Notes under the pieces: model-generated | Seen by the model: only the letters and a program-made list of their open reading frames with translations | Told to the model about the DNA's origin: nothing | The model's database searches: none | Made by a program: the position numbers and the translations under genes | In this document: piece by piece, positions 5,920 to 62,456 of the stretch | Layout of the letters: each line of letters begins with the position of its first letter | How positions within the stretch are numbered: position 1 is the stretch's first letter | DNA from: a virus | Virus genome (UHGV): UHGV-0240317 | Length of the DNA stretch: 64,000 bases | Direction: 5' to 3' (one strand)

Positions 5920-7116
5920 ACCCATCGGTGAAATAACCTTACCAGAACGCTCAAAAGCCTCTGCTACAGCACCATGACCAGATACACTTAAGAAGTCTGG
6001 ATACATTGCTTTAGAGCAACACTCAATAGCTTTACTGTACAGGTGACTTTGACAGATATTTTCATCATGTCTCTTCTGGTCATAAATATAAACCAGTTTA
6101 GGGAATACAACAGGTTTTTTGCTCTTGCCTTGTCCATTCATACGAACATCTAGGAGAGTACTTGCAATCATGTATTGTAGTCGATTATCCTCATTAGACA
6201 TATCTGAGTCAAGTAAACCAAATGTTAAAGTTGTGAATGCAAAATCACCACGGCTACAAGGTACGGTATTTAGTTTCATCTCAAGTGACTGAAAACCTTG
6301 AGTCAGTTCAATTTGTAACTGCTCCATTACATAATTGTGGTAATGCTCTTTAGGAATACCATAAGATGATGCTTTCTCAGCATGATAGCGTAGAGACTTC
6401 TTAGCATACGGTACAAGTACCTTATCAATCTCTGCTAAAGTAAAACCACCAAATTGCTGTGCAGTTGCTGAAAGTACTACGTCACCAATAACCTGCAACG
6501 CTGACAGTACAGATTTAGGTTCACAGTACTCAATGCCGGACATTTCAAAGCCACCTTTTAGTACTTTACCAATGTCAAACAGGCAACAGTTAATACCACC
6601 AAAAATCAGGTCTCTCAAATCGTGGATATAGATAAAGCCTTTCTCAATGGCTTCAAGTTCCTCTGGTGTTAGATGATACTGTTTAAAGATTTCTTTAGTC
6701 AGGTAACCACGGATAATTGAACCTTTCGTAGAAATTAAACTGCTGTCAAAGTTAGCATTTTCACGGTCACCTAAGAAGAGTGTATCTTTGGTCTTCTGGT
6801 AAAGCTCATCCCAATTTTGAGCAACTTCTTTACGGTAATTTCTATATGTTGAGTAAGACTCATAAATCTCGTGATTGACTTCTGCCAAAGCACCCTCAAC
6901 AATACTGTGAATATCATTTACAGAAATTAGCAAATTATTCTGCTTAGTGGACTTTACCAGAATCCTCATAAATGCTGACTCAAGAGCTTGGGTAACATCT
7001 GGTGGAAGTTCTTTATATCCAACCCTGTTAGCTGACTTTGTGACTGCTGCTAAAACTTTTTTGATATCAGGTTCTTCAAGTGAGCCATTCTTTTTAATAA
7101 TCTGTACTTTGTTCAT
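5920..7116 (-). CDS. nrdD: anaerobic ribonucleoside-triphosphate reductase, exon 1 (N-terminal ATP-cone and catalytic core)
   Basis: 399 codons starting MNKVQIIKKNGSLEEPDIKKV (ATP-cone-like); ends ...YPDFLSVSGHGAVAEAFERSGKVISPMG immediately before intron-borne stop. Confidence 0.8.
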
Positions 7117-7606: not shown

Positions 7607-8679
7607 TAAGGAACCTCTAAAAATCCACTATTCAAATCATCTACAACAGTATTCAACAGGTACGCACCGTTCTGTTGCTCCTGATTAGCATTCTGCTCTT
7701 TATCAATTTCCATCTTCTTAATCATGTACTTCAAAGGTGGTTCTTTAGGAGCTACAAAATCTCTGGGAATGCCAAACATATCATACAGTGGTGCAGCATT
7801 ATAGTAAACCCACTCATGAAGAAGCTTTGTATTTAAGCCAACTACAGCACGTCCTTCGGAGAAGATATAATACGACCATTTCTCTTCACTTTCAACTACT
7901 TCATCTAAGATTACTTTAATCTCTGGAAGAATTTGTTGAAAAGCTTTCTGCCATTCATCATCTCTTAAAGTTTCTTTTAAAACTTCAATATCAATTTTAG
8001 TGTGAAGGATTTCGTCAAGCATAATTTTCTGAACAGCTTGAGCAATACCCTGAAATTTATCTTGAGCATCAAGTGCAAAAGTACATGCAAAGGATGCCAT
8101 AAAAGATATGCCTTCAAGTGCAGTCACTGCAAATAGACCTTTCAGAATCACTTTATGGAAGTGTAAAGGGTCTTTGTCCAGAAGTGAATCACGGACATAA
8201 CTCAGTCGATAGTTTATACCTTCATCCAGTAATTCTTCAAGAACACGATTCACAGTTTTTAATCGGTCTTGTACAGCAATGTTCTGGTTAATCTCATCTA
8301 AGATTGTTTCAGGATTTTTAATACACTGTCTTACAATCTCCGAGTAAGTAAGAGCATGTAGGTTTTCAATCTCAGACTGCTTCATAATTGCAGTTGCATA
8401 GATGTCATCAGAGATGAATGGTGCAAAAGCAAACGCTAAACTCTTAGCAACTTGGGTATCTGCTTCCCACTGCCACTTAAGAATCTCAAGCATTACACCT
8501 GACATTGATGCTGGTACACTCTCAAAATCAAGACGTGATTGTTCAAAAGGGAACTCATCTTCTGACCAGTCTTGTGCTTTTTGTTGTTTATAGAGTTCAA
8601 AGATTTTTGGGTAGTGCTTGTTAAGTGAGTCAAATGTCTTTCTCTCACCACCTAAAAAGATTGGGTGCTGGTTAATCAT
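7606..8679 (-). CDS. nrdB: ribonucleotide reductase class Ia small (beta) subunit
   Basis: Ferritin-like small-subunit sequence; ATG at 8679 overlaps upstream stop (ATGA); follows nrdA. Confidence 0.75.
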   Translation of the reverse strand: MINQHPIFLGGERKTFDSLNKHYPKIFELYKQQKAQDWSEDEFPFEQSRLDFESVPASMSGVMLEILKWQWEADTQVAKSLAFAFAPFISDDIYATAIMKQSEIENLHALTYSEIVRQCIKNPETILDEINQNIAVQDRLKTVNRVLEELLDEGINYRLSYVRDSLLDKDPLHFHKVILKGLFAVTALEGISFMASFACTFALDAQDKFQGIAQAVQKIMLDEILHTKIDIEVLKETLRDDEWQKAFQQILPEIKVILDEVVESEEKWSYYIFSEGRAVVGLNTKLLHEWVYYNAAPLYDMFGIPRDFVAPKEPPLKYMIKKMEIDKEQNANQEQQNGAYLLNTVVDDLNSGFLEVP

Positions 8680-20298: not shown

Positions 20299-22441
20299 AT
20301 GGAAAACGTAGATTTTAAAAACTTACATTTAGTTGGTGATACAGAAACTGATGGTTTACTCCTTGAGTTCACTAAAGTGCACGTAATGGCTTTCGCAGAC
20401 TATAAATCTGACGATGAAGAGCCACCTGTATGGGTCTTTACAGATGAGCCTATCCTCGGTCACAAGTATACCAAGTACATTAAGGGTGGCTTACGTGAAG
20501 GTGTTGAATTTGCGTTAAAGGCAAAACGTCTTTGCATCCATAATGGTCTCGGTTATGACTGGTGGGTTTTTAATCACATTGCACCTGATTTATGGAACTT
20601 TGATAATCCAAAGTGTAAACCGTGGAGTAATTTCTTTCAGGATTCTCTTATCCAGTCTCGTGTTCAGTGGATGGATAGACCAACCCCAAAAGGTTATAAG
20701 GGTGCTCATGGCTTGGCTGCATGGGGTGCTCGTGTTGGTGTCCGTAAACCAGAGATTGAACATTGGGGTGTGTGGAATGCAGAAATCTTCACTCGTGTTG
20801 TAGAAGATATCCGTATTAACGCCAAAACTAAACGGGCACTTGATAATGAATATCTCAAGCTTAAGAAGTGTGGCATAGATACTTATGAAACCTACATGCG
20901 AGCTAAAGAAACATCTTTTTGGATGAGTCAACAAGCTATCAATGGCTGGAAAGCTGATAAAGAGCTTATGGAGTTCCATGTAAAGGAACTTGACAAGTTG
21001 ACTAATGAGCTTGCTTCAGAGGTTGAACCACATCTACCTCCAACTATTAAGACCAAAGGTAAAGTCACTGGAGAAGAGTTTGCAAAAGCTTGGAATGAGT
21101 ATGTTGAAACATTTGGTCATGCAGATGGACTGAAGAGAATTACCAAGTACCCTAAGACAAAGTATCGTCAGCAGGTACGTAATGGTGAGATGCAGACTTA
21201 TGAAATCAAACCATTTGGTAAGCCAACTACAAAGATTTTTAACATTGAAAAGAGAAATTGCTATACACCAACCAACTCTGTAACTGGTGAAGAGTACAAG
21301 GAAGGTTTTGTAGCAATGAAGGATGCTCGTGCAATTTGCAATGAGTTGAATGCAAAGATTGGTAAGAAATGCAAAGACTGGAAGCCAGCAAAAACAGTTA
21401 AGACTGTGAAGTACTATAACAGCCATGTTGTTAACCACTTTGAGCTTGAGTCAAGTCGCTACACAGGTTTGATTGATGCACCATATACACCAATCGAGTT
21501 CGAAGTTTCTCGTATGACTCAGGTAGCAGTTGTTAAAGACTACTTGAAATCAGTTGGTTGGATTCCAGATGACTGGAACTATAAGAAAGACTCTGATGGT
21601 CGTCCTGTTAAGGTTTGTCGCTTCAAAGACAACAAAAAGATGATTACAAAGCATCCTAAATGGCAGGAAATGGTTGAACGGTGTGGTTTGAGCTATGTTG
21701 AACATGAAGGCGTCCAGTACATTGAGCATAACTGGTCTGTGAAGAAATACACAGATTTGCTTGAGCCTTGCTTAATCCGTACTTCACCAAAACTTACTGA
21801 ATCATCTTATGATACGATTGAAGGTGAGCTTGGACAGAAGATTGCTAAGTACTATACTTTGATGCACCGACGCAGAACTATTGAGAACTCAAAGGATGAT
21901 GAGAAAGGTTGGTTAAACCAGATTCGTCCTGATGGTCGCCTTAGTGCTGGTGCAATGGTGTTTGGTACTTCAACTGGACGTATGACACAATATGGTATTG
22001 TAAACGTACCGTCTGGTGCTGCTGTCTATGGAGCACCTATGAGGGAGGTGTGGATTTGTGAAGAGGGGACTAACATTGTTTCTGTTGACCAGAACTCAGC
22101 CCAGCTTGTTTTACTGTGTAACTTTATGGGTGATAAAGACTTCACCAAAGCAGTAACTGAAGGTAAAGAGTCAGTAGAGTTCACTAAGCAAGATGATGGT
22201 AGATACTACTGTAAACATCTTGACAAGTATCTTAACCCAGAAACTGACAAGTATCTGCGTTATGATGCTGAAAATGACCTCTATGAAGTCTACACAGGGA
22301 CTGATGCGCATACACTGAACAGTATTTACTTTGGTCTTAACAAGGAAGAAGATATTGTCCGTTGTAGGGAGACACAGGGTGAGGAACTTCTCCACGAGAT
22401 TACAAAAGGTCGTAAGAAAGCCAAAAATGGCATTTATGCGT
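20299..22441 (+). CDS. DNA polymerase family A (T7 gp5-like), exon 1 (3'-5' exonuclease and N-terminal polymerase domains)
   Basis: ATG 20299 with GAGGGAG RBS; exo motifs LVGDTETDGL and HNGLGYDWWV; exon ends ...RKKAKNGIYA + U, before in-frame stop located in intron. Confidence 0.8.
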
Positions 22442-22709
22442 CAGTGGCGCATGTAAAACGTTGTGAATTGCTGGAAGCCTAAGTCTGTAAAGATATGGTA
22501 ATCAGCAGCGAAGCCTCTTGAGAGGAACGTTCAGAGACTATCGAAAAGCATACTTAATGTATGAACTGAGTAGAGTAGGGTGGTAAGCTAATGACCATAC
22601 CCAAGTGCAACGGTAGCATCACTGCTACGTGATATAGTCCGACACTCCGTAGAAATGCGGAGAAGTTCATAAGAGAACTGGTACACCTTGCGAGTGTATT
22701 GACCAGATG
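22442..22709 (+). mobile_element. ORF-less group I intron in DNA polymerase gene
   Basis: P1: exon ATGCGU pairs with intron GCGCAU (U-G at splice site); P7 strands GTTCAGAGACTATCG and GATATAGTCCGAC; terminal G at 22709; splicing restores ...NGIYALLFGAGDEKF matching T7 pol motif YGFLYGAGDEK. Confidence 0.75.
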
Positions 22710-55259: not shown

Positions 55260-55335
55260 TGGAGAATCCGAAGGGACTCGAACCCTTATAAGCCTGTTTT
55301 GCAGACAGGCACATAGCCATTTCTGTCACGGATTC
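55260..55335 (-). tRNA. tRNA-Cys (anticodon GCA)
   Basis: Acceptor GAATCCG/CGGATTC, T-arm GGGTTCGAGTCCC, anticodon loop CTGCAAA, encoded CCA. Confidence 0.75.
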
Positions 55336-55339
55336 AAAT

Positions 55340-55432
55340 TGGAGGAAGATACCAGACTTGAACTGGTACACCGATTTCTCAGCTACTGGCAGTTTAGCAA
55401 ACTGCTCCCTTACCTTTTAGGGTTAATCTTCC
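55340..55432 (-). tRNA. tRNA-Ser (anticodon GCT), class II
   Basis: 93 nt with long variable arm; anticodon loop TTGCTAA; T-arm ACCAGTTCAAGTCTGGT; CCA. Confidence 0.7.
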
Positions 55433-55433
55433 A

Positions 55434-56009
55434 TTATTTCTGTAATGCGTTCTTCATTTCTGGTGTTGCAATAGTGTCAATCACACCAGTTTTACAAGCA
55501 TCATCAAACCAGTCTGGTAAGATACCTGCTAAGAACCCATTGATATTCGTTTTAAGGTACTCTGCAATAAGGGCAGCTTCTTCTTCAATCATCTGCACAA
55601 CTTCATCTGCATAAGCTGTAATCTTTGAGATACCTTCATTAATCTTACTGACAGCTTGGTTAGCTAAATCAGAAACAGTATCAAGACCCTTATCAATAGC
55701 ATCTTGTAAGTCACTTAATACACCATTAACACTATCCAATGTACTGTTCATCATGTCAATAGCTTTTTGACCATACTCTGTAGCAACACCCATAATACCA
55801 CTGAATGGTGTACAACCAACTTGTTCTCCTGCTGCACCCATAACATTGGAGTATCCCTTTGCTACCTGCATACGTGATGAAAACTCATCAATAGACTTTT
55901 GACCGTAGTCTGTTAGGGTCTTAGTAGTTGCTGTAGTGCTTGTAAGGCTTGTTGTAAAGCTGTTTAGAAGGACTGTTGTAAGTCCAGCAGCAACAAGTTT
56001 CTCCTTCAT
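55434..56009 (-). CDS. hypothetical protein embedded in tRNA cluster
   Basis: 191-aa ORF, Ser/Thr/Ala-rich, helical. Confidence 0.4.
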   Translation of the reverse strand: MKEKLVAAGLTTVLLNSFTTSLTSTTATTKTLTDYGQKSIDEFSSRMQVAKGYSNVMGAAGEQVGCTPFSGIMGVATEYGQKAIDMMNSTLDSVNGVLSDLQDAIDKGLDTVSDLANQAVSKINEGISKITAYADEVVQMIEEEAALIAEYLKTNINGFLAGILPDWFDDACKTGVIDTIATPEMKNALQK

Positions 56010-56185
56010 TGTAGGGTCTGTTACAGAGCTAATAGAGCTTACAAGTGATGTAGAAGCAGCTACGGTTCCACCGAGAACTGCTGCACCAGTAATAAGTGGG
56101 TTAGAGAACCCTTTACCGGTTTTTTAAGAGATTAAAAATCTCCTTACCTTGTTCTGTCATCTCTTTCATTAAGCACCTTTGAAAT

Positions 56186-56261
56186 TGGTAGTCCAGTGGG
56201 ATTTGAACCCTCTTCTCATGTTTTTCAGACACGCGCTTTAACCATATAAGCTACTTGGACT
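56186..56261 (-). tRNA. tRNA-Phe (anticodon GAA)
   Basis: Anticodon loop CTGAAAA; T-arm GGGTTCAAATCCC; CCA. Confidence 0.7.
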
Positions 56262-56267
56262 ATAAAT

Positions 56268-56343
56268 TGGGGTGACCTACGGGATTTGAACCCGTATAGA
56301 CCATGTTCACAGCATGGGTCATTACCATTTATGATAAGGCCAC
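56268..56343 (-). tRNA. tRNA-His (anticodon GTG)
   Basis: Anticodon stem-loop CCATG-CTGTGAA-CATGG; T-arm CGGGTTCAAATCCCG. Confidence 0.7.
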
Positions 56344-56374
56344 ATTTAAGGACTCTCGCAAGAATCCTTAGAAG

Positions 56375-56450
56375 TGGCAGCGGCATAAGGATTTGAACCT
56401 TAATAGGACAGCTTCAGAGGCTGCTGCATTGCCAGTTATGCTATACCGCT
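56375..56450 (-). tRNA. tRNA-Gln (anticodon CTG)
   Basis: D-stem GCAT/ATGC, anticodon loop CTCTGAA, T-arm TAAGGTTCAAATCCTTA, CCA. Confidence 0.65.
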
Positions 56451-56455
56451 AAATT

Positions 56456-56534
56456 TGGTACTCCATATCGGATTCGAACCGATACATAACACAGATTTTA
56501 AGTCTGGCCTCTCTGCCAATTGGAGTAATGGAGC
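56456..56534 (-). tRNA. tRNA with anticodon TAA (Leu-type anticodon but class-I-like length)
   Basis: Anticodon loop CTTAAAA; T-arm ATCGGTTCGAATCCGAT; 7-nt variable region; isotype uncertain. Confidence 0.5.
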
Positions 56535-56536
56535 AT

Positions 56537-56611
56537 TGGCGGGGGATGTTGGAATTGAACCAACTTCTTCGATTTCAAAGACCGAGGTTTTAACCTTGTA
56601 AACTAATCCCC
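56537..56611 (-). tRNA. tRNA-Gln (anticodon TTG)
   Basis: Anticodon stem-loop TCGGT-CTTTGAA-ATCGA; T-arm GTTGGTTCAATTCCAAC; CCA. Confidence 0.6.
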
Positions 56612-56620
56612 TTTAAATCT

Positions 56621-57178
56621 TTACTTTCTCAGTGGATGAATAAAGAATGCCAACATAACTCTTTCCCTTGAGAATGCTCTTTCTTCTGGGACAACACTTT
56701 TTAGTTTCCATCCAATATAAATTCTCCAGTAAAACTGTTTACCAAAGACTTTAATTGATGGGATAAAAGCGAATAATCCCCAAGCATTACTGTTCCACAT
56801 TAGGAGATAACCTGTCTGATTATCTTCAGGGTCAGAACTTACGTTGATATTACCTTTCCACTTAGTAACATCTTTTACATCTCTTCCTAATACATGGTAA
56901 GAGAAGTTATAAGCTTTGTTTCTCCAGAGCCATCCGACTCTCTGCATGTAGACACCCAGCTTACCAATCTTTCTAATCTTAGCCCATCTTTTAACGTGGC
57001 CTTCATCACCATCAATCGGGTTGTCATAGGTCTCCATCCATCTGAATCCAAAAGGTAGATGCCCTTTCTTCTCACTGTAGAATGGAACTACGAAAGGTGC
57101 TAAGATGACTGCTAGGGTTGCTGCAAATGGTTCTAACAAAGCTAGGAAAATCCATGAAGCATATTTTAAATATCTCAT
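56621..57178 (-). CDS. hypothetical membrane protein embedded in tRNA cluster
   Basis: 185 aa; N-terminal TM segments IFLALLEPFAATLAVILAPFVV. Confidence 0.45.
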   Translation of the reverse strand: MRYLKYASWIFLALLEPFAATLAVILAPFVVPFYSEKKGHLPFGFRWMETYDNPIDGDEGHVKRWAKIRKIGKLGVYMQRVGWLWRNKAYNFSYHVLGRDVKDVTKWKGNINVSSDPEDNQTGYLLMWNSNAWGLFAFIPSIKVFGKQFYWRIYIGWKLKSVVPEERAFSRERVMLAFFIHPLRK

Positions 57179-57417
57179 CGTCTAATCCTTGTAAGGAGAT
57201 AAATGTTATTATTCGTTTCTAAACCTTCTGGTAAAACTGTCTCAAAAATAACACTCTTTAGCTGTCTACCACCAAAACAATCACGTATAAATCTTTCTAC
57301 TCTAGCGGGGTCACATAAGTACCCTACTTTTAAGAAAATGTGGTGTTCAACACCAATGACCCTGACAAACTCAATATTCTCACAGTTTTCATGTTCAACT
57401 ACTGTTAATGTTTGCAT
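57175..57417 (-). CDS. hypothetical protein
   Basis: 80-aa ORF. Confidence 0.4.
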   Translation of the reverse strand: MQTLTVVEHENCENIEFVRVIGVEHHIFLKVGYLCDPARVERFIRDCFGGRQLKSVIFETVLPEGLETNNNIYLLTRIRR

Positions 57418-57434
57418 AGTATCACCTTTTTATC

Positions 57435-57510
57435 TGGCGCAGGATAAGGGATTCGAACCCCTATTAACAGCTTCGTAGACTGTTGCTCTATCCATTTGAA
57501 CTAATCCTGC
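57435..57510 (-). tRNA. tRNA-Arg (anticodon ACG)
   Basis: Anticodon stem-loop ACAGT-CTACGAA-GCTGT; T-arm AGGGGTTCGAATCCCTT; CCA. Confidence 0.75.
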
Positions 57511-57515
57511 AAAAT

Positions 57516-57593
57516 TGGTGTTCCAAGACGGATTCGAACCGTCACTAATACAAGGTTTGAGCTTGCATCCTCTTCCAATTGGGATACTGGAAC
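57516..57593 (-). tRNA. tRNA with anticodon CAA (Leu-type anticodon but class-I-like length)
   Basis: Anticodon loop CTCAAAC; T-arm GACGGTTCGAATCCGTC; perfect acceptor stem; isotype uncertain. Confidence 0.5.
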
Positions 57594-57594
57594 A

Positions 57595-57669
57595 TGGTAC
57601 TCACTAAAGGACTTGAACCTTTTTCTTCATCTTGTAAGGGTGATGTTTTACCATATAAACTAAGCGAGT
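57595..57669 (-). tRNA. tRNA-Val (anticodon TAC)
   Basis: Anticodon loop CTTACAA; T-arm AAAGGTTCAAGTCCTTT; CCA. Confidence 0.65.
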
Positions 57670-57674
57670 GTGAA

Positions 57675-57760
57675 AGAGGTCTGAAGTTGTGCCGCTAACT
57701 CAACTCCGTGGAATTTGTTACGGTCTTCAGTTGACACCAGCGGTCTTTCACTTGACCTCT
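57675..57760 (-). ncRNA. structured non-tRNA element in tRNA cluster (7-bp closing stem AGAGGTC/GACCTCT, inner 6-bp stem CTGAAG/CTTCAG)
   Basis: No T-loop/CCA; contains GAAGACCGT box related to the repeated elements at 59928-60707. Confidence 0.3.
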
Positions 57761-57764
57761 GAAT

Positions 57765-57841
57765 TGGTGCTGCTCACAGGACTCGAACCTGCATTTCCAT
57801 CCTTACAAGGGATGTGTAATAGCCAATTATACGAAAGCAGC
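57765..57841 (-). tRNA. tRNA-Thr (anticodon TGT)
   Basis: Anticodon stem-loop CATCC-CTTGTAA-GGATG; T-arm GCAGGTTCGAGTCCTGT; CCA. Confidence 0.65.
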
Positions 57842-57847
57842 ATTGTT

Positions 57848-57922
57848 TGGAGCATCCAGAGGGAATCGAACCCTCAACCTCAGTTTGGAAGACTGTAATT
57901 TTCCCGTTTAAACTATGGATGC
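57848..57922 (-). tRNA. tRNA-Gly (anticodon TCC)
   Basis: Anticodon loop CTTCCAA; T-arm GAGGGTTCGATTCCCTC; CCA. Confidence 0.7.
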
Positions 57923-57928
57923 ACTAAT

Positions 57929-58004
57929 TGGTGGAGAAGCAGGGAATTGAACCCTGTACTTAAGTTTGCAAAACTTATGTTTTAACCATGTAAACTACAT
58001 CCCC
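57929..58004 (-). tRNA. tRNA-Ala (anticodon TGC)
   Basis: Anticodon stem-loop TAAGT-TTTGCAA-ACTTA; T-arm CAGGGTTCAATTCCCTG; CCA. Confidence 0.65.
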
Positions 58005-58010
58005 AATGTC

Positions 58011-58086
58011 TGGTACAGGTGGAGGGAATTGAACCCATCGTCTTACTGATTAAGAGTCAGCCGCATAACCATTTTGCTACACCTGC
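58011..58086 (-). tRNA. tRNA-Lys (anticodon CTT)
   Basis: Anticodon loop CTCTTAA; T-loop TTCAATT; acceptor GCAGGTG/CACCTGT; CCA. Confidence 0.6.
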
Positions 58087-58093
58087 ATTAATT

Positions 58094-58170
58094 TGGTACA
58101 CCTAGAGAGATTCGAACTCACACTGAGCAGATTCTAAGTCTGCTGCCTCTACCAATTGGGTTATAGGTGC
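58094..58170 (-). tRNA. tRNA with anticodon TAG (Leu-type anticodon but class-I-like length)
   Basis: Anticodon stem-loop GCAGA-CTTAGAA-TCTGC; T-loop TTCGAAT; isotype uncertain. Confidence 0.5.
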
Positions 58171-58171
58171 A

Positions 58172-58624
58172 TTAAATCAAATGTCTTGAGAATTGACTGT
58201 GGCAATTTGGACACAAGAACCGAAGATTCTCTTTTCTATCATCTAACCAGTTCTCGTTAATGTGGTCAACATCAAGAGTTAGAGGATTACCCAACCAATC
58301 AGGTAACTGACCACATTTAGAGCACTTGTATTCGACACCAGAGGCTATTAAAGCTCTTCTTAGTTGTGAAGACCTCGCTCTTTCACCAGATTCACGTAGA
58401 ATTAGGATTTCTTCAGGCTTTCTTTTTGGTACAGTTTTAATCTTACCAGCCTTTTGTCCGAGAAAATGAGAAGTGTCTATTTCAAACTTTTCTATAACAC
58501 GCTTTAGATGTGACTGAGAACCACCTGCTGGTTTTCTCCCAAGCTTAATAAGTACTTCTCTGAATGATACTGAATCCTTTACTAAAGGTTCAAGAATATC
58601 TTTAGTCAAACTGCTGCGTGCCAT
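58172..58624 (-). CDS. HNH endonuclease (free-standing, inside tRNA cluster)
   Basis: 150 aa; C-terminal HNH/zinc motif CSKCGQ...LDVDHINENW...NLRFLCPNCH. Confidence 0.7.
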   Translation of the reverse strand: MARSSLTKDILEPLVKDSVSFREVLIKLGRKPAGGSQSHLKRVIEKFEIDTSHFLGQKAGKIKTVPKRKPEEILILRESGERARSSQLRRALIASGVEYKCSKCGQLPDWLGNPLTLDVDHINENWLDDRKENLRFLCPNCHSQFSRHLI

Positions 58625-58894
58625 GTGTCAATCTCCCATTAAATCTTTTTAGAGAACTTCTAAGAACCTAAGCAACAAGGTTCCACAACAAGCTGTAATA
58701 ACCTTAGAAGCCCTCTAAAAAGACCTAAAAAGGTCTTTGCATAGTCTTGTTTAATCCGGTGACTAGAACCTTTGGAGAGCTTGATATTATCTCTTCTCCG
58801 TGACACCTACTAGGTGCTTTATCAGTGCGTACAACAATACACGCGGTATACCAAAGCAACATCCGAATGAAGCTTGGCTTTAAATCTTATTAGG

Positions 58895-58982
58895 CGGTAA
58901 GTAAAGGAGTCGAACCCTCACCGTATCTCTACAGTGGCAACAGTTTTCAAGACTGTTTGGCTGCCATTAGCCGCTACCTACC
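58895..58982 (-). tRNA. tRNA-Ser (anticodon TGA), class II
   Basis: 88 nt; anticodon stem-loop ACAGT-CTTGAAA-ACTGT; long variable arm; T-arm GAGGGTTCGACTCCTTT; CCA not encoded. Confidence 0.6.
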
Positions 58983-58995
58983 CCTAATAAGACTT

Positions 58996-59078
58996 TGGCA
59001 TGGGACGGAGGATTTGAACCCCTTTGAAACGGTTTTGGAGGCCGTTGCTCATGCCTTAGAGTCTTAACATCGTCCCAT
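58996..59078 (-). tRNA. tRNA-Trp-like (anticodon CCA) with enlarged D-loop
   Basis: Perfect acceptor ATGGGAC/GTCCCAT, T-arm GGGGTTCAAATCCTCC, anticodon loop CTCCAAA on a 4-bp stem; 83 nt. Confidence 0.45.
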
Positions 59079-59220
59079 ATTATAATTCGAAGCTTACCGT
59101 ATTATCTCAACACTGTAAAGCCCCTTCTCAGATTATTTACATGTTCTGGAAAACATGAGATACAGACCACCTCCCTACAGGAAGACCCGCTTAGGTCGTC
59201 TAAGTAATCTGCTAACTAAT

Positions 59221-59297
59221 TGGCACACCCTACAGGATTCGAACCTGTAACTAACGATTTAGAAGACCGTTGCTCTATCCAATTGAACTAAGGGTGC
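59221..59297 (-). tRNA. tRNA-Arg (anticodon TCT)
   Basis: Anticodon stem-loop ACGGT-CTTCTAA-ATCGT; T-arm ACAGGTTCGAATCCTGT; CCA. Confidence 0.7.
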
Positions 59298-59544
59298 ATT
59301 AATCTTTAAAGACTCTCTGAGAAAGCCCTTAAAGATGCCCACCTTATTAATCATACCGTGGGCTAGTACGCCAAATTCTTCGATGAGGGATTGGAAGACC
59401 TCACTGGTGTTTAGCCTATCAAGCTACTGCCAGAAAAACATTGTCGTTTGCATTTATTTTAAATTTGCAAAATAGACGCTACGCAACGAAAACTAAGGTT
59501 ACTATAAAGTAGTCACATCTCAATGTCAACAACTTTATTGAAAG

Positions 59545-59619
59545 TGGTTGTAGGTGAGGGTATCGAACCCTCTTCTAACGGTTATCAGCCGTTTGCATTA
59601 CCATTTATGCTAACCCACA
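59545..59619 (-). tRNA. tRNA-Ile (anticodon GAT)
   Basis: Anticodon stem-loop AACGG-CTGATAA-CCGTT; T-arm GAGGGTTCGATACCCTC; CCA. Confidence 0.7.
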
Positions 59620-59621
59620 AT

Positions 59622-59698
59622 TGGAGGTTCAGATGGGAATCGAACCCACATTCATAGGGCTTATGAGACCCTTGCATTACCTTATCTGCGACTGAACC
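59622..59698 (-). tRNA. tRNA-Met (anticodon CAT)
   Basis: Anticodon loop CTCATAA; T-arm GTGGGTTCGATTCCCAT; perfect acceptor GGTTCAG/CTGAACC. Confidence 0.65.
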
Positions 59699-59702
59699 AT
59701 AT

Positions 59703-59778
59703 TGGTAGAAGTGGAGGGATTCGAACCCATCGCCTGTCAGATTAAAAGTCTGCCGCATCACCATTCTGCTACACTTCC
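59703..59778 (-). tRNA. tRNA-Lys (anticodon TTT)
   Basis: Anticodon loop CTTTTAA; T-loop TTCGAAT; CCA. Confidence 0.6.
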
Positions 59779-59927
59779 ATTAAATTATCTTTGTAGATAA
59801 GCTACCCAGACTTGCTTAAGGTCTGTAGCGATGTGTATTGTTGGGTTTAAATCTAGAATTTACCCTTTCACCCTTTGTGGTCGCATACTCACAGGTAAGC
59901 TTAATAACTTATCTACAAAGATAATTA

Positions 59928-60060
59928 CCAGACCGTTGTTTAACATCTTAAGTGCTACCATTACACCAACTCGACATCTGCCGAGTGAAGGAATCGAACC
60001 TTCTCCTTTTCTTTACCGGAGAAATAGATTGTTTAAAGTTTGCTGTAAACGGTCTTCTGT
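59928..60060 (-). ncRNA. structured RNA element (repeat-family member 3) containing a tRNA-like module without anticodon arm
   Basis: Closing stem ACAGAAGACCGTT/AACGGTCTGG; interior has canonical T-arm GAAGGTTCGATTCCTTC, 7-bp acceptor-like hairpin ACTCGGC-agat-GTCGAGT and D-arm-like GTGT-AATGGTA-GCAC. Confidence 0.35.
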
Positions 60061-60072
60061 AAATTTGTTGAG

Positions 60073-60151
60073 CCAGACCAAGTTTTAAAATTTTTTCAAA
60101 ATTAAATTGGCTTGAAAATATCATACGTACTTGCTGTAATTGGTCTTCTGC
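60073..60151 (-). ncRNA. structured RNA element (repeat-family member 4)
   Basis: Plus-strand CCAGACC...TTGCTGTAATTGGTCTTCTGC; same terminal boxes as members 1-3. Confidence 0.3.
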
Positions 60152-60211
60152 TCCTTTAAAGAATACTCGTAAGAACTCTTTAAGGGAGGGGCTAAATAGC
60201 CCTCTCAAAAT

Positions 60212-60289
60212 TGGCGGTTACGAAGGGATTTGAACCATCATCATCTCCCGTGACAGGGGAGTATTTTAACCAAATTAAACTACATAACC
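60212..60289 (-). tRNA. tRNA-Asp (anticodon GTC)
   Basis: Anticodon stem-loop CTCCC-CTGTCAC-GGGAG; T-loop TTCAAAT; CCA. Confidence 0.7.
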
Positions 60290-60294
60290 TTTAT

Positions 60295-60382
60295 TGGTGT
60301 GCCGTGTAGGAGTCGAACCTACCGAGTCTCAATGACAAGGGATTTACAGTCCCCACCGCTACCATCTACGGGATAACGACAC
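60295..60382 (-). tRNA. tRNA-Tyr (anticodon GTA), class II
   Basis: 88 nt; anticodon stem-loop GGGGA-CTGTAAA-TCCCT; long variable arm; T-arm GTAGGTTCGACTCCTAC; CCA. Confidence 0.7.
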
Positions 60383-60391
60383 ATTTAAATT

Positions 60392-60468
60392 TGGCGGTTA
60401 GTCAGGGATTCGAACCCTGTGCCATTCGCTTAACAGGCGACCGCACATACCTTATGTGCTTCCTAACC
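60392..60468 (-). tRNA. tRNA-Asn (anticodon GTT)
   Basis: D-stem GCAC/GTGC; anticodon loop CTGTTAA; T-arm CAGGGTTCGAATCCCTG; CCA. Confidence 0.7.
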
Positions 60469-60479
60469 TTAATACATTG

Positions 60480-60541
60480 CCAGACCGTGTTTTTTCTTTT
60501 ATCCGCAAAAAGTATTTTGTTGCTGTAAACGGTCTTCTGTA
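60480..60541 (-). ncRNA. structured RNA element (repeat-family member 1)
   Basis: Plus-strand CCAGACCG...TTGCTGTAAACGGTCTTCTGT; on minus strand directly follows tRNA 3' end. Confidence 0.3.
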
Positions 60542-60545
60542 AATT

Positions 60546-60621
60546 TGGAGGCGGGTGCAGGAGTCGAACCTGCCGATACCATGCTAATGAGACATGTGAG
60601 ACGCCCTTTCTCTATACCCGC
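60546..60621 (-). tRNA. tRNA-Met-type (anticodon CAT), second copy
   Basis: Anticodon stem-loop CATGT-CTCATTA-GCATG; T-arm GCAGGTTCGACTCCTGC; could be initiator or Ile-lysidine type. Confidence 0.55.
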
Positions 60622-60633
60622 AATTCTTAATGA

Positions 60634-60707
60634 CCAGACCAAATCTCTTCTTTGTCCGATTTACCTTCAGATGAATAAGATTAAGTTTGCTGTAATTGGT
60701 CTTCTGT
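60634..60707 (-). ncRNA. structured RNA element (repeat-family member 2)
   Basis: Plus-strand CCAGACC...TTTGCTGTAATTGGTCTTCTGT. Confidence 0.3.
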
Positions 60708-60713
60708 CAAAAC

Positions 60714-60791
60714 TGGCGTTCCAGAAGGGATTTGAACCCTCAGATATCCACTTTGAAAGAGTGGTGACTTTACCATTTTGTCTACTGGAAC
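60714..60791 (-). tRNA. tRNA-Glu (anticodon TTC)
   Basis: Anticodon stem-loop CCACT-CTTTCAA-AGTGG; T-arm GAGGGTTCAAATCCCTT; CCA. Confidence 0.7.
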
Positions 60792-60798
60792 ATTAATT

Positions 60799-60875
60799 TG
60801 GTCTCTGTTGGAGGACTTGAACCTCCGGCCTTACCGCCCCAAACGGAACGCTCTACCAAGCTGAGCTAAACAGAG
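60799..60875 (-). tRNA. tRNA-Pro (anticodon TGG)
   Basis: D-arm GCTC-AGCTTGGTA-GAGC; anticodon loop TTTGGGG; T-arm GGAGGTTCAAGTCCTCC; CCA. Confidence 0.75.
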
Positions 60876-61040
60876 ATAAACTTTTCAAACTCTATGTAAC
60901 CACTTTAACATTATTTTTTAGTGGTTGTCAAGAACTTTTTTAAAATATTTTTCAGTATCTTAGAAAAGCTCTCATTTCGTTTCTATGTAGAACATATTAA
61001 AGGGTATTAAACGCATTGTCAATACCCTTTTTAAAACTTT

Positions 61041-62456
61041 TTACCAGATGTAACGGTCAATCATTACTGCTCTGAGCATTACGCTGGTTGGGTCAAACTT
61101 CTCACCACCAAGCAGAGCTTTTAAAGTGGCTGGAGAGAACCCTGATACTATTGCTACACCATTATCCTTAACAGACACTTCGCAAGTACCACTACGGTTT
61201 GCTAAGTACCAGAATACCAGTTGTGGCATTTCGTATCCAGCTTTTTTGTACTTACTACGAATTACTTCAAAGTTTGTACGACCATTTGCACCGTCAACCT
61301 GATTAAACTCCATATCAGAGAAGATGATAAGCTTACTTGGCATATCTTTCTGAGTCAAGTTGTTTCTCTTACCTGTCTCAAGGATGCGGTCAAAAGCTGC
61401 TTGTAAGTTAGTTGAACCGTATTCAACGTGTCGCATCACCTGACGATGACGGTTTAGTAAATCACCACTCAGTTCGATGAAGTGAGGGTTTGTTGAATAG
61501 ACCATTAACTCATTTTTAAAGCAACCTGTATTGCGTTCTGCTACATACAAGGCAAGTGATACACCAATATCAAGAGCAGTAATGGAGCCAAATTTAACCC
61601 AAGACATTGAGTTTGAAACATCAGACATACATAGAATGTTTTCACCCTCTGCCATCCAGTTTGGTAGTGCTTTCCACTGCTCATTAGCAACATCTGCATT
61701 GCCATACTTAACAGATTTAATCACATCGTATGGGTAAACAGCACCAGCATTAATCTTAGTCTCACCCTTTGATAAGGACTCAATGTAAGCTTTGTAGCGT
61801 TCTCCATCTTTACGGTTAAACAGTTTTTGGTAACGTGCAGCAGCAAGTGAAGGAATCTTACTGTAGTCAATCTTGCCGAACTCATTAGCAGAGATTTTTT
61901 GCTCAACTGTATCAGATAGTGCAGACAAAAGTGTGCGGTACTCTTTCTCACTCAAGTTGGCAAACTTGCAGAAACGTTTTACAAACTGCTTATGACGTGG
62001 TTTGACTCGTGGTAACCACTTAGCTACCAAACCTGCTGTTGCAGGGTCTAGTAATGCTGCTTCTAAATGTTTGAAGGCATCTGTCTCGAAACGAGTACCT
62101 ACGAAGATTTTGAAGTCATCAAAACGACCAAGTTCTGCAATCTTATCCATAATGCGAAGAACCTGTGTAGGCTCTAAAACTTTATCTTCACTTGCTTGAA
62201 GCAAAACAGTTCTGAAGGCTTTACGCTCACCCATACCTTCTCGTACATCTCGCATATGAAGCAAAATACGAACTGCAACATCAACATCCTCACGCAAAGC
62301 TTTGTAGAACAAGTCTGGTAAGATTTCTACATTACTACGGCTTGAACCAGCAGCTTTGTAAAAGTCTACAAGAGCAGACATTGATGAAGTATGGTTTACA
62401 GCACCATTTTCAGTTCGACCTGCATGAAGGTGCGCATGTTTAAATAATTCGCTCAT
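61041..62456 (-). CDS. vWA-domain protein with MIDAS motif; candidate Ro60/TROVE-like or DUF2828-type RNA-associated protein
   Basis: 471 aa; helical N-terminal region then ILCMSDVSNSMSW (DxSxS) ... LIIFSDMEFNQ pattern that I recall from Ro60 vWA domains; ATG 62456. Confidence 0.45.
   Translation of the reverse strand: MSELFKHAHLHAGRTENGAVNHTSSMSALVDFYKAAGSSRSNVEILPDLFYKALREDVDVAVRILLHMRDVREGMGERKAFRTVLLQASEDKVLEPTQVLRIMDKIAELGRFDDFKIFVGTRFETDAFKHLEAALLDPATAGLVAKWLPRVKPRHKQFVKRFCKFANLSEKEYRTLLSALSDTVEQKISANEFGKIDYSKIPSLAAARYQKLFNRKDGERYKAYIESLSKGETKINAGAVYPYDVIKSVKYGNADVANEQWKALPNWMAEGENILCMSDVSNSMSWVKFGSITALDIGVSLALYVAERNTGCFKNELMVYSTNPHFIELSGDLLNRHRQVMRHVEYGSTNLQAAFDRILETGKRNNLTQKDMPSKLIIFSDMEFNQVDGANGRTNFEVIRSKYKKAGYEMPQLVFWYLANRSGTCEVSVKDNGVAIVSGFSPATLKALLGGEKFDPTSVMLRAVMIDRYIW

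Follow-up and report, generated by a model that had tools for sequence, protein, structure and literature searches.

A conserved 131-nt tRNA-mimic element, a candidate Y RNA, beside a predicted Ro60-like protein gene in a Felix O1-type phage

Organization of the locus

The stretch of DNA analysed here (hereafter the window: 64,000 nt of the virus genome UHGV-0240317, a Felix O1-type phage) carries a tRNA array in which ARAGORN called 26 tRNAs. In the gaps of this cluster, on the minus strand, we found four exact copies of AGAAGACCNNNNACAGCAA, each closed by GGTCTGG, and no copy elsewhere in the window. These copies define four paralogous elements, A to D, framed AGAAGACC-NNNN-ACAGCAA...NNNN-GGUCUGG and located 7–11 nt from tRNA ends (Table 1). 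An HNH endonuclease gene lies in the cluster, and a gene encoding a Ro60-like protein is located about 1 kb upstream of element D on the same strand. Two sigma70-like promoters upstream of tRNA-Pro likely drive the tRNA/element array, as no minus-strand terminator-like site lies between them and element D. By contrast, a promoter reading of the TTTACA within the frame was rejected: it is not conserved in elements A and C, and the only hit of the promoter scan was weak (9/12).

Table 1. Coordinates of the features of the locus in the window (all on the minus strand)
Feature	Coordinates	Sequence or description
Element D	59928..60058	131-nt framed RNA with a permuted tRNA-like insert
P1 closing stem, 5' strand	60049..60055	AGACCGU
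Single-stranded motif	60040..60048	UUACAGCAA, directly 3' of the P1 5' strand; candidate protein-recognition site
V hairpin	60008..60024	UUUCU-CCGGUAA-AGAAA; variable-arm equivalent
T-arm	59987..60003	GAAGG-UUCGAUU-CCUUC
Acceptor-like 7-bp hairpin	59969..59986	ACUCGGC-AGAU-GUCGAGU
U8-G9 equivalents	59967..59968	UG
D-arm	59952..59966	GUGU-AAUGGUA-GCAC
P1 closing stem, 3' strand	59930..59936	ACGGUCU
GG tail	59928..59929	Conserved
Element C	60073..60149	77-nt paralogue; conserved interior hairpin loop GCCAAUUUAAU
Element B	60480..60538	59-nt paralogue between tRNA-Met and tRNA-Asn
Element A	60634..60705	72-nt paralogue between tRNA-Glu and tRNA-Met
sigma70-like promoters	60902..61022	TTGACA-17-TAATAT; TTGACA-18-TAAAGT
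Ro60-like protein gene	61041..62456	471 aa; Pfam DUF2828 + DUF7788; PHROG 850 'RNA-binding protein'

Element D carries a permuted tRNA-like module

An earlier note, made from the sequence alone, had described a T-arm, a 7-bp hairpin mimicking an acceptor stem and a D-arm-like hairpin, enclosed by a long closing stem within one member of a repeat family. This observation is confirmed: the three motifs are present exactly as described, the enclosing strands can be written AGACCGT(T)/(A)ACGGTCT, the repeat family exists, and the tRNA hallmark residues are present (U8, A14, G18G19, A21, G53-T54-T55-C56-R57-A58 and C61). The arrangement is beyond chance: a strict pattern (5-bp T-stem and T-loop, 7/7-bp capped acceptor, 2 nt, D-arm with GG) found a single site in the 128 kb of window strands, which is this one, and none with a D-arm in 1.73 Mb of unrelated viral contig strands. 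The minimum free energy fold yields the closing stem, the T-arm, the capped acceptor and the D-arm; however, single-sequence folding z-scores are modest (−1.2 to −2.1) and were not used as evidence.

The element is not a conventional tRNA gene. ARAGORN made no call at this position, and the Rfam tRNA model (RF00005) scored 22.2 bits against a cutoff of 29, with unpaired acceptor positions. The note's statement that no anticodon stem-loop exists is nevertheless literally wrong, as a 5-bp/7-nt hairpin, here called the V hairpin, lies 4 nt upstream of the T-arm. The Rfam tRNA model aligns this hairpin as an anticodon arm, and the GenBank record REP5 annotates a 131-nt 'tRNA-Thr GGT' here. However, the loop is 5, 6 or 7 nt long in relatives, showing that it is not a constrained anticodon loop, and we therefore consider it a variable-arm equivalent. 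The annotation of a tRNA-Thr(GGU) with an intron, as in REP5-8, was rejected because (i) the proposed 5' acceptor does not pair and (ii) the 'anticodon' loop varies in length. We noticed by eye that AGAAGACCGUU is complementary to the anticodon arm of tRNA-Arg(UCU); as the frames of distant phages have different stem sequences, this is probably coincidental, and it was not pursued.

We asked whether the module could be a true permuted or split tRNA-type gene, in which RNase P would cut 5' of G1 in the acceptor loop, the 3' side would be trimmed and CCA added or exposed, to give a two-piece molecule with a chargeable acceptor end as in two-piece tmRNA or Mycobacterium smegmatis YrlA. The 7-bp acceptor and 5-bp T stem with an intact elbow are compatible with this view, NCCA is encoded in the acceptor loop of the Moogle-type element (loop G-CCA-AACA) and of two distant loci described below (L145, in two elements, and L171), and M. 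smegmatis YrlA is a precedent. However, the loop in the window is AGAU and has no CCA, no anticodon arm is conserved, and the junction is a long conserved stem rather than a bulge-helix-bulge (BHB). No tag ORF or pseudoknots are present, the element is only 131 nt, and no hit of the Rfam tmRNA or permuted tmRNA (RF04321) models overlaps it. We consider this reading very unlikely as an alternative, and cleavage would in any case be compatible with a Y RNA.

The structure of the element is conserved

The note had named beforehand a finding that would count against it, namely an intact conventional tRNA at this position in homologous phages. No such tRNA was found: Mooglevirus and Suspvirus keep the permuted arrangement with compensatory changes. 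The order of the protein gene, tRNA-Pro, tRNA-Glu and elements A, B, C and D is kept in three genera of Ounavirinae, Felixounavirus, Mooglevirus and Suspvirus. Fourteen distinct variants of element D, from at least four sequence families, were then compared. The RNAalifold consensus and our explicit structure agree on 23 pairs, and 99.4% of all cells are paired, against 40–45% with slid partners. The acceptor hairpin changes sequence completely but stays paired: three positions have double-sided compensatory changes, two of which show three pair types, and the covariation score is 0.171 against 0.055 when shuffled (0/500). P1 is 100% paired in the 14 variants, with one C-G to U-G change, and covaries among the paralogues. 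UUACAGCAA is invariant in all D variants. The T-arm is identical in 13 of 14 variants, the D stem is invariant and the D loop varies only at the position-20 equivalent; these arms hence carry no covariation evidence. It should be noted that independent lineages are few (3–4 in Ounavirinae). The helix between P1 and the junction (P2) is not resolved: candidate pairings exist (AAUCU/AGAU in the Felix-type, AUUUA/UAAAU in the Moogle-type), but the MAFFT alignment does not put them in register and they were left out of the statistics. Protein coding on either strand was rejected, as the overlapping ORFs are not conserved across genera and the PHROG hits are over-called ORFs, one of which lies antisense to two tRNAs.

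These data bear on two other explanations. The element might be a decaying relic without function, either two tandem copies of one tRNA that lost their outer halves or a degenerate tRNA-Thr. The topology is what tandem duplication followed by deletion would give, Moogle-type and several distant copies still carry discriminator-CCA-spacer in the acceptor loop, like a tRNA 3' end followed by the next tRNA, and the Suspvirus V loop CUGGUAA is a perfect Thr(GGU) anticodon loop. Element D is moreover absent from some relatives: the relative L126 (63% protein identity) has A–C-like elements but no D, and phage FG1m has lost C and D together with neighbouring tRNAs. However, the acceptor stem has been rewritten three times and remains 99% paired, the T- and D-arms are near-invariant across genera whose flanking sequence has diverged to 74–89% identity, the architecture recurs in unrelated phages, and the module is always inside the conserved frame. 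A relic is therefore very improbable. A DNA-level repeat, either a MITE-like mobile element with terminal inverted repeats or target sites for a homing endonuclease, is suggested by the four copies with inverted termini and by the HNH endonuclease gene, but we regard it as the least likely reading: the copies are fixed at syntenic positions in three genera and all lie on the tRNA strand, the interiors are individually conserved structures, and the frame substitutions are of the G-U type, which pair only in the minus-strand RNA.

The upstream gene encodes a predicted Ro60-like protein

The 471-aa protein encoded upstream of the array matched only DUF2828 and DUF7788 in Pfam, and sequence and profile searches of the PDB returned no hit; it is thus not a sequence-recognisable TROVE protein. 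However, its AlphaFold2 model (pLDDT 83, pTM 0.85) matches Ro60 over its full length: the top 9 Foldseek PDB hits are all Ro60/TROVE structures (E 4e-8 to 4e-6, 516–562 aligned columns). The MIDAS residues DVSNS..T..D are present, and the protein also matches phage proteins named 'TROVE' and 'Ro-like'.

Similar frames accompany the gene in distant phages

We wondered whether the association between the frame and the gene holds in other phages. In 65 loci (labelled with L numbers) from phages with only 39–46% protein identity, stem+TNCAGCAA frames number 146 on the gene strand and 64 on the opposite strand, whereas about 56 are expected from 95 unrelated viral contigs (Poisson 1e-23). In 50 of the 65 loci a frame lies within 1.2 kb of the gene, although many of these loci are related to one another. 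The core UNCAGCAA is shared by 71 unique frames. Stems covary, as shown by GGACUGU/ACAGUCC and GGAUUC/GAAUCC in Yersinia phage P778. Framed permuted T/capped-acceptor/D modules recur next to the gene in unrelated phages (L145, L158, L171 and L173), and none with a D-arm occurs in the controls. In KVP40-like phages, a frame wraps the RBS and start codon of the Ro60-like gene itself, as expected for a protein-binding site. A family-wide covariance model was not built.

These results weigh against a functional RNA that is independent of the Ro60-like protein, such as a tRNA-mimic decoy or sponge for a host factor recognising the tRNA elbow or acceptor (a tRNA-targeting defence nuclease, RNase P or a modification enzyme), or a processing or stability element punctuating the tRNA polycistron. 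In favour of this reading, element D sits inside the tRNA array with no terminator upstream, its tRNA hallmark residues are fully conserved, the frames lie close to tRNA ends and D can be lost without losing the protein gene. However, this does not explain why the stem+UNCAGCAA frame follows the DUF2828 gene into phages where the frame is not in a tRNA cluster, and even wraps the RBS of the gene. In addition, the element lacks an anticodon loop and is a poor decoy for anticodon nucleases, and the conserved single-stranded motif is unnecessary for simple RNase punctuation. We hold this explanation to be unlikely, albeit the strongest of the alternatives.

Discussion

With moderate confidence, we propose that element D is a gene for a structured non-coding RNA that works like a bacterial YrlA-type Y RNA, partnered with a divergent, phage-type Ro60-like protein. 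In this model, the RNA is transcribed with the tRNA array, and released by processing of the flanking tRNAs and trimming back to the terminal stem. The terminal module, shared by elements A–D, comprises the 7–8-bp stem P1, the single-stranded UUACAGCAA and the 3' CU-GG tail, and would be the docking site for the Ro60-like protein. The interior is a circularly permuted tRNA body: the T- and D-arms form a tRNA elbow, the 7-bp acceptor stem is capped by a loop, a hairpin resembles a variable arm, and the helix leading to P1 takes the position of the anticodon stem. This mimic would recruit or occupy a tRNA-recognising factor (for example RNase P, the CCA-adding enzyme, modification enzymes or an exoribonuclease) and so couple it to the Ro60-like ring, which is how Y RNAs tether PNPase to Ro60. 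Elements A–C would present other effector modules to the same protein. The RNP would belong to the tRNA/RNA-protection toolkit of the phage, and may be needed for the anti-defence activity reported for the orthologous Bas63 gp130. Of these steps, our analysis demonstrates the conservation and covariation of the terminal module and the structural conservation of the interior; transcription and processing, binding, the function of the mimic, the roles of A–C and the part played in defence are inferences, as no expression, end-mapping or binding data exist.

The main interpretation of the earlier note, that this is not a conventional tRNA and resembles the tRNA-like domain of YrlA-type Y RNAs, is supported, and is strengthened by the neighbouring Ro60-like gene, of which the note was unaware. 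Nonetheless, the element resembles YrlA without being a member, and the note overlooked the V hairpin. Its alternative of a permuted or degenerate tRNA probably describes the origin of the module and not its present function.

Ro60-Y RNA particles are a conserved but poorly understood RNA-surveillance system, and the purpose of the tRNA-like domain of bacterial Y RNAs is unknown. Our data provide concrete RNA candidates for a phage Ro60-like protein that, according to a 2024 preprint, counters a bacterial defence system (Ppl). Whether the protein needs these RNAs, what the tRNA mimic recruits and how that defeats defence thereby become directly testable questions. The frame also defines what appears to be a large RNA family, absent from Rfam, that tracks DUF2828/DUF7788 genes across many uncultivated phages. 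In practical terms, recurrent mis-annotations (a 'tRNA-Thr GGT' and 'hypothetical proteins') are corrected in Felixounavirus genomes, which are widely used as therapeutic and typing phages.

Relation to known systems

In YrlA (Rfam RF02553; Chen et al. 2014, PMC4201824), the 5' and 3' ends form a terminal stem, and the interior tRNA-like domain has the order V region, T-arm, capped acceptor-like stem, D-arm, with the anticodon-stem position continuing into the terminal stem. This order is found in element D, and so are the proximity of a Ro60-fold protein gene and the presence of several paralogous RNAs beside one protein gene (YrlA/YrlB). However, the Ro-binding motif GNCGAA(N0-1)G is absent from elements A–D and from the whole tRNA cluster, and no CGAA is present in the elements; the conserved parts are instead UUACAGCAA and a CU-G(G/U) 3' end. 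If the RNA binds, the recognition mode thus differs from known Ro60-Y RNA pairs; neither Ro60 binding nor tRNA-type modification (TruB, DusA) was assayed here. The Rfam YrlA model (gathering score 69 bits) gave no hit even at E<=10 on the isolated 156-nt region, and none at gathering on 9 distant loci. The partner is a DUF2828/DUF7788 protein, the RNA is embedded in a phage tRNA array, and no RtcB was seen among the neighbouring ORFs scanned. The YrlA of M. smegmatis has a 7-bp acceptor-like stem, which makes it an RNase P substrate with subsequent CCA addition (PMC4201824); relatives of element D encode N-CCA in the acceptor loop, whereas the copy in the window does not, and cleavage of the phage RNA was not examined.

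Two phage systems are close to the one described here. The Ro60 of Thermus phage phiLo binds two adjacent small RNAs, Yrl1 and Yrl2, as well as host PNPase, which it is proposed to hijack, and it is proposed to help evade defence (PMC12135203); the phiLo RNAs carry the canonical CGAA motif and were not reported as tRNA-like, and the protein is a recognisable Ro60. Bas63 gp130 (PhageMaP preprint, 10.1101/2024.10.10.617714) comes from the same virus genus and is encoded at the same position, directly upstream of the tRNAs. It was noted to be structurally Ro60-like and counters the Ppl defence system, and its authors speculated that some annotated tRNAs are Y RNAs, but no RNA was identified; the candidates found here are not annotated tRNAs but lie in the gaps between them. 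The equivalence of gp130 with the ORF studied here is inferred from taxonomy and synteny and was not checked by alignment.

The dictyostelid Class I RNAs (Rfam RF01414; Kjellin et al. 2021, PMC7919456) have a short stem joining the 5' and 3' ends, a conserved motif ...UUACAGCAA immediately 3' of the 5' strand, a variable interior and a conserved 3' end C-UGU, with the C pairing to a conserved 5' G; they are about 60 nt long, and the phage short class has a median of 59 nt. With respect to the terminal stem, the adjacent CCUUACAGCAA motif and the 3' CUGU, the architecture and 8 of 11 motif positions are shared and the distant phage frames end in CUG(U/A); only the consensus was compared, and this resemblance neither places the phage RNAs in the class nor excludes them. 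Phage copies score 14.1–27.5 bits against a gathering score of 41.5 (23.9 bits for element B), the host domain and promoters differ, and the only known direct binder of Class I RNA is the RRM protein Rnp1A. A far-reaching but doubtful possibility is that the phage RNAs (terminal stem, UNCAGCAA, 3' CUG(U)) and the Class I RNAs are one class, Y-RNA-like ligands of the DUF2828/DUF7788 branch of the Ro60 superfamily, which is also abundant in giant viruses of amoebae and other protists. Eukaryotic DUF2828 homologues, including any in dictyostelids, were not examined, and literature searches for the motif and for Dictyostelium with TROVE returned nothing relevant. If true, Class I RNAs, an abundant development-regulating class reported as unique to Dictyostelia, would gain both relatives and a candidate protein partner, and a second, TROVE-independent Ro/Y-type RNP lineage would span phages, giant viruses and eukaryotes.

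Finally, in circularly permuted tRNA genes and two-piece (permuted) tmRNA genes, as in element D, the 3' half (T-arm and acceptor 3' strand, sometimes with CCA) is encoded upstream of the 5' half (acceptor 5' strand and D-arm) and joined to it by a short linker. Element D differs from these genes by the features described above and in that its ends are locked in a conserved protein-type frame.

A tRNA-like module in the gap between tRNA-Asp and tRNA-Lys

The 433-bp gap that contains the element in this Felix O1-like phage (Felixounavirus) matches 252 phage records, mostly at 95-99% identity. ARAGORN identified 26 tRNA genes on the minus strand of the surrounding cluster. When the minus strand of the gap is read, it contains a T-arm (GAAGG-UUCGAUU-CCUUC), a 7-bp hairpin (ACUCGGC-AGAU-GUCGAGU), the dinucleotide UG and a D-arm (GUGU-AAUGGUA-GCAC), with all the tRNA hallmark residues present, and the whole is enclosed by AGACCGU(U)/(A)ACGGUCU. 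The T-arm, hairpin and D-arm are exactly as the earlier note had described, and its observation is confirmed. tRNA detection had been proposed in that note as a check: no tRNA detector calls the element, and the Rfam tRNA model gives 22.2 bits against a cutoff of 29. A strict pattern (T-arm, capped 7-bp acceptor, D-arm) retrieved this single site in the window and none with a D-arm in 1.73 Mb of unrelated viral contig strands.

However, the statement of the note that no anticodon stem-loop exists needs correction. A 5-bp/7-nt hairpin (UUUCU-CCGGUAA-AGAAA) lies 4 nt 5' of the T-arm and looks like an anticodon arm: Rfam aligns it as one, and GenBank record REP5 annotates a 131-nt "tRNA-Thr GGT" at this position. 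As its loop is 5 nt (Moogle-type, GGGUA), 6 nt (CGGUAA) or 7 nt in relatives, it is not an anticodon loop; it occupies the position of the V (variable-arm) region of YrlA. More generally, public annotations (records REP5-REP8, UAB_Phi87, PK6 and others) place a "tRNA-Thr GGT", a "tRNA-OTHER" or a "hypothetical protein" over this element and its neighbours.

Coordinates of the elements and neighbouring features (positions in the window unless a phage locus is named)
Feature	Position	Strand
tRNA cluster (26 tRNA genes)	55260-60875	-
tRNA-Lys	59703-59778	
tRNA-Asp	60212-60289	
Element A	60705-60634	-
Element B	60538-60480	-
Element C	60149-60073	-
Element D (tRNA-like insert)	60058-59928	-
Promoters (two)	61022-60902	
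Ro60-like ORF (471 aa)	61041-62456	-
Stable 152-nt region, immediately 3' of element D	59779-59930	-
Probable atypical tRNA-Trp(CCA)	59002-59076	-
Region compared with the 5' strand of the frame, tRNA-Arg(UCU)	59252-59298	
Group I catalytic intron	22379-22662	+
Locus L128 (KVP40-like Vibrio phage), frame copy	5961-6010	
Locus L166, Class I RNA model hit	8413-8470	
Locus L192 (uncultivated phage), permuted tmRNA gene	2000-2281	+

Four elements share a conserved frame

The element, hereafter D, is one of four (A to D) that all lie in gaps of the tRNA cluster and share the frame AGAAGACC-NNNN-ACAGCAA...NNNN-GGUCUGG. The variable bases stay complementary: CCAA/UUGG in A and C, CCGU/ACGG in B and D. 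Only D has the tRNA-like insert, whereas A, B and C have their own conserved small hairpins. Related phage genomes, a comparison that had also been suggested in advance, showed all four elements at the same positions in Mooglevirus and Suspvirus. Substitutions in the stem (A-U to G-U, C-G to U-G) keep pairing only in RNA of the minus strand, which argues for an RNA-level element and against a DNA-level one. The frame sequence AGAAGACCGUU is, by eye, the exact complement of positions 26-36 (anticodon stem-loop) of the phage's own tRNA-Arg(UCU); this is probably a coincidence, since distant frames use other stem sequences.

Two further features were noted in the cluster. A 152-nt region folds into a very stable structure with a 24-bp closing stem (MFE -45.6 kcal/mol, z = -5.9, 0 of 200 shuffles as stable) and contains a miniature frame-like hairpin, CAGACC-UUAAGCAA-GUCUGG; it has no Rfam match and no known function. 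A probable atypical tRNA-Trp(CCA), missed by ARAGORN, has a 7-bp acceptor (AUGGGAC/GUCCCAU) followed by G73 and an encoded CCA, the anticodon loop CUCCAAA and an aberrant long D region. It is conserved in the phage loci L126 and L127 and would complete the set of 20 amino acids. Elsewhere in the window, a group I catalytic intron (RF00028) scores 62.3 bits, above the gathering score of 50; its host gene was not examined.

The structure of element D is under selection

To address whether the structure is maintained, fourteen distinct D variants, falling into four sequence families, were aligned. RNAalifold, run blind, returned exactly the 23 pairs that we had specified. In this alignment 99.4% of cells are paired, against 40-45% when partners are slid by 1-3 columns, and the covariation score is 0.171 against 0.055 in shuffles (0 of 500 reach it). 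The acceptor-like stem has been rewritten (ACUCGGC/GUCGAGU, ACCCUUC/GAAGGGU, ACACGUU/GGCGUGU), with three positions changed on both sides. As the T-arm, the D-arm and the closing stem P1 are almost invariant, they carry no covariation evidence, and the small number of independent lineages is a main weakness: this is good rather than overwhelming evidence. The ORFs that overlap the element on either strand are not conserved between genera, and the PHROG families that match them (PHROGs 14433 and 36255) are over-called ORFs, one of which lies antisense to two tRNAs. The feature is real, conserved and non-coding.

A Ro60-like protein is encoded upstream of the tRNA array

Directly upstream of the tRNA array, on the same strand, lies an ORF with Pfam DUF2828 and DUF7788 that PHROGs labels "RNA-binding protein". 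Sequence and profile searches against the PDB found nothing. However, the nine best PDB hits of an AlphaFold model (pLDDT 83, pTM 0.85) are all Ro60/TROVE structures (Thermus phage phiLo Ro60, human and Xenopus Ro60, and Deinococcus Rsr), with E 4e-8 to 4e-6, 516-562 aligned columns and TM up to 0.62, and vWA-only hits follow them. The vWA MIDAS residues are conserved. Against viral models, the closest relatives are DUF2828/DUF7788 proteins of phages and of giant viruses, and more distant matches include annotated "TROVE" and "Ro-like RNA binding" phage proteins. The protein is a divergent member of the Ro60 superfamily.

The RNA frame follows the protein

We asked whether the frame accompanies this protein in other phages. 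The phage of locus L126 (63% protein identity) has three framed elements but no D. Yersinia phage P778 (53%) has three frames with new, still complementary stems (GGACUGU/ACAGUCC, GGAUUC/GAAUCC and GGACUC/GAGUCC), one of which has a reduced T-arm-containing insert. The T4-like Vibrio phage phi-pp2 (45%) has a frame, GACAUU-UUACAGCAA-...GAGGAA...-AAUGUC, that wraps the RBS and start codon of the Ro60-like gene itself. In KVP40-like Vibrio phages (L128, and also L144 and L146) the frame copy GACAUU-UUACAGCAA-UUUAAUAUGAGGAAUAAAC-AAUGUC-AGC encloses the Shine-Dalgarno sequence and start codon of that gene, which suggests translational autoregulation by the protein.

We then collected 65 loci from other phages (39-46% identity) and counted a pre-specified motif, TNCAGCAA with a closing stem of at least 6 bp.

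Framed motifs in the 65 loci and in controls
Sequence set	Framed motifs
Gene strand	146
Opposite strand	64
Shuffles, per strand	about 27
Expected on the gene strand from 95 unrelated viral contigs	about 56 (Poisson 1e-23)

In 50 of the 65 loci a frame lies within 1.2 kb of the gene on the same strand, where we calculate from the control rate that about 10 would be expected, although the loci are not all phylogenetically independent. These data indicate that the RNA frame does follow the protein. The family consensus is 5'-AG(R)-stem-(0-3 nt)-U-N-CAGCAA ... stem-(Y)CU-G(U/A)-3'; a short class has a median length of 59 nt, and longer classes also exist. Framed permuted T / capped-acceptor / D modules recur in loci L145 (several), L158, L171 and L173. 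In four cases (Moogle-type, two L145 elements and L171) the acceptor loop reads discriminator-CCA-spacer. The uncultivated phage of locus L192 carries a permuted (two-piece) tmRNA gene (RF04321, 90.9 bits) about 2 kb upstream of its DUF2828 gene and framed RNAs.

A candidate Y-RNA analogue

The reading of the note, that the module resembles the tRNA-like domain of YrlA-type Y RNAs, is supported and considerably extended by these results. The architecture is the one described for YrlA-type bacterial Y RNAs: a terminal stem with V, T, capped acceptor and D inside it, next to a Ro60-fold gene, with several paralogues sharing the stem. Our best explanation, held with moderate confidence, is that element D is a Y-RNA analogue. 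In this view the shared frame would dock the Ro60-like protein, and the permuted tRNA body would present a tRNA elbow and acceptor/T minihelix to a tRNA-recognising factor. While conservation, structure and the association with the gene come from the analysis itself, transcription with the tRNAs is inferred from two strong promoters and the absence of an intervening terminator, and binding, expression and function are all unshown, the complete lack of experimental evidence being a main weakness. The fact that D is dispensable in some relatives also weakens the proposal: Salmonella phage FG1m has lost C, D and several neighbouring tRNAs, and L126 has no tRNA-like frame. These natural variants would be useful controls for function.

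Precedents make this explanation plausible. phiLo Ro60 binds adjacent Y-like RNAs and host PNPase, and M. smegmatis YrlA, which has a 7-bp acceptor, is cut by RNase P and receives CCA. The PhageMaP preprint reports that Bas63 gp130 is Ro60-like, sits directly upstream of the tRNAs and counters the Ppl defence system, and it speculates that some annotated tRNAs might be Y RNAs. The candidates found here lie in the gaps between the tRNAs.

Comparison with YrlA and Class I RNAs

Despite this resemblance, the element is not a member of the YrlA family. The GNCGAA(N)G motif is absent, the Rfam model gives no hit even at E<=10 on the isolated region or at gathering on nine distant loci, and the protein is not a sequence-level TROVE protein. 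The element works like a Y RNA, if at all, through a different recognition motif.

The only Rfam family that the frames touch is the Dictyostelium Class I RNA family. Elements A, B and D and a sequence of locus L166 gave weak hits, at 14-27.5 bits against a 41.5-bit gathering score, and the individual hits are at chance level (E about 0.5). Class I RNAs were reported as unique to dictyostelids, with only an RRM protein known to bind them directly. DUF2828 proteins are multi-copy in giant viruses of protists; whether dictyostelids encode such proteins was not tested, and we regard the link as possible but unlikely. The architecture was compared at the consensus level only, where the match is striking: both have a short terminal stem, ...UUACAGCAA immediately after its 5' strand, a variable interior and a conserved 3' C-UGU whose C pairs with a conserved 5' G, and both are about 60 nt long.
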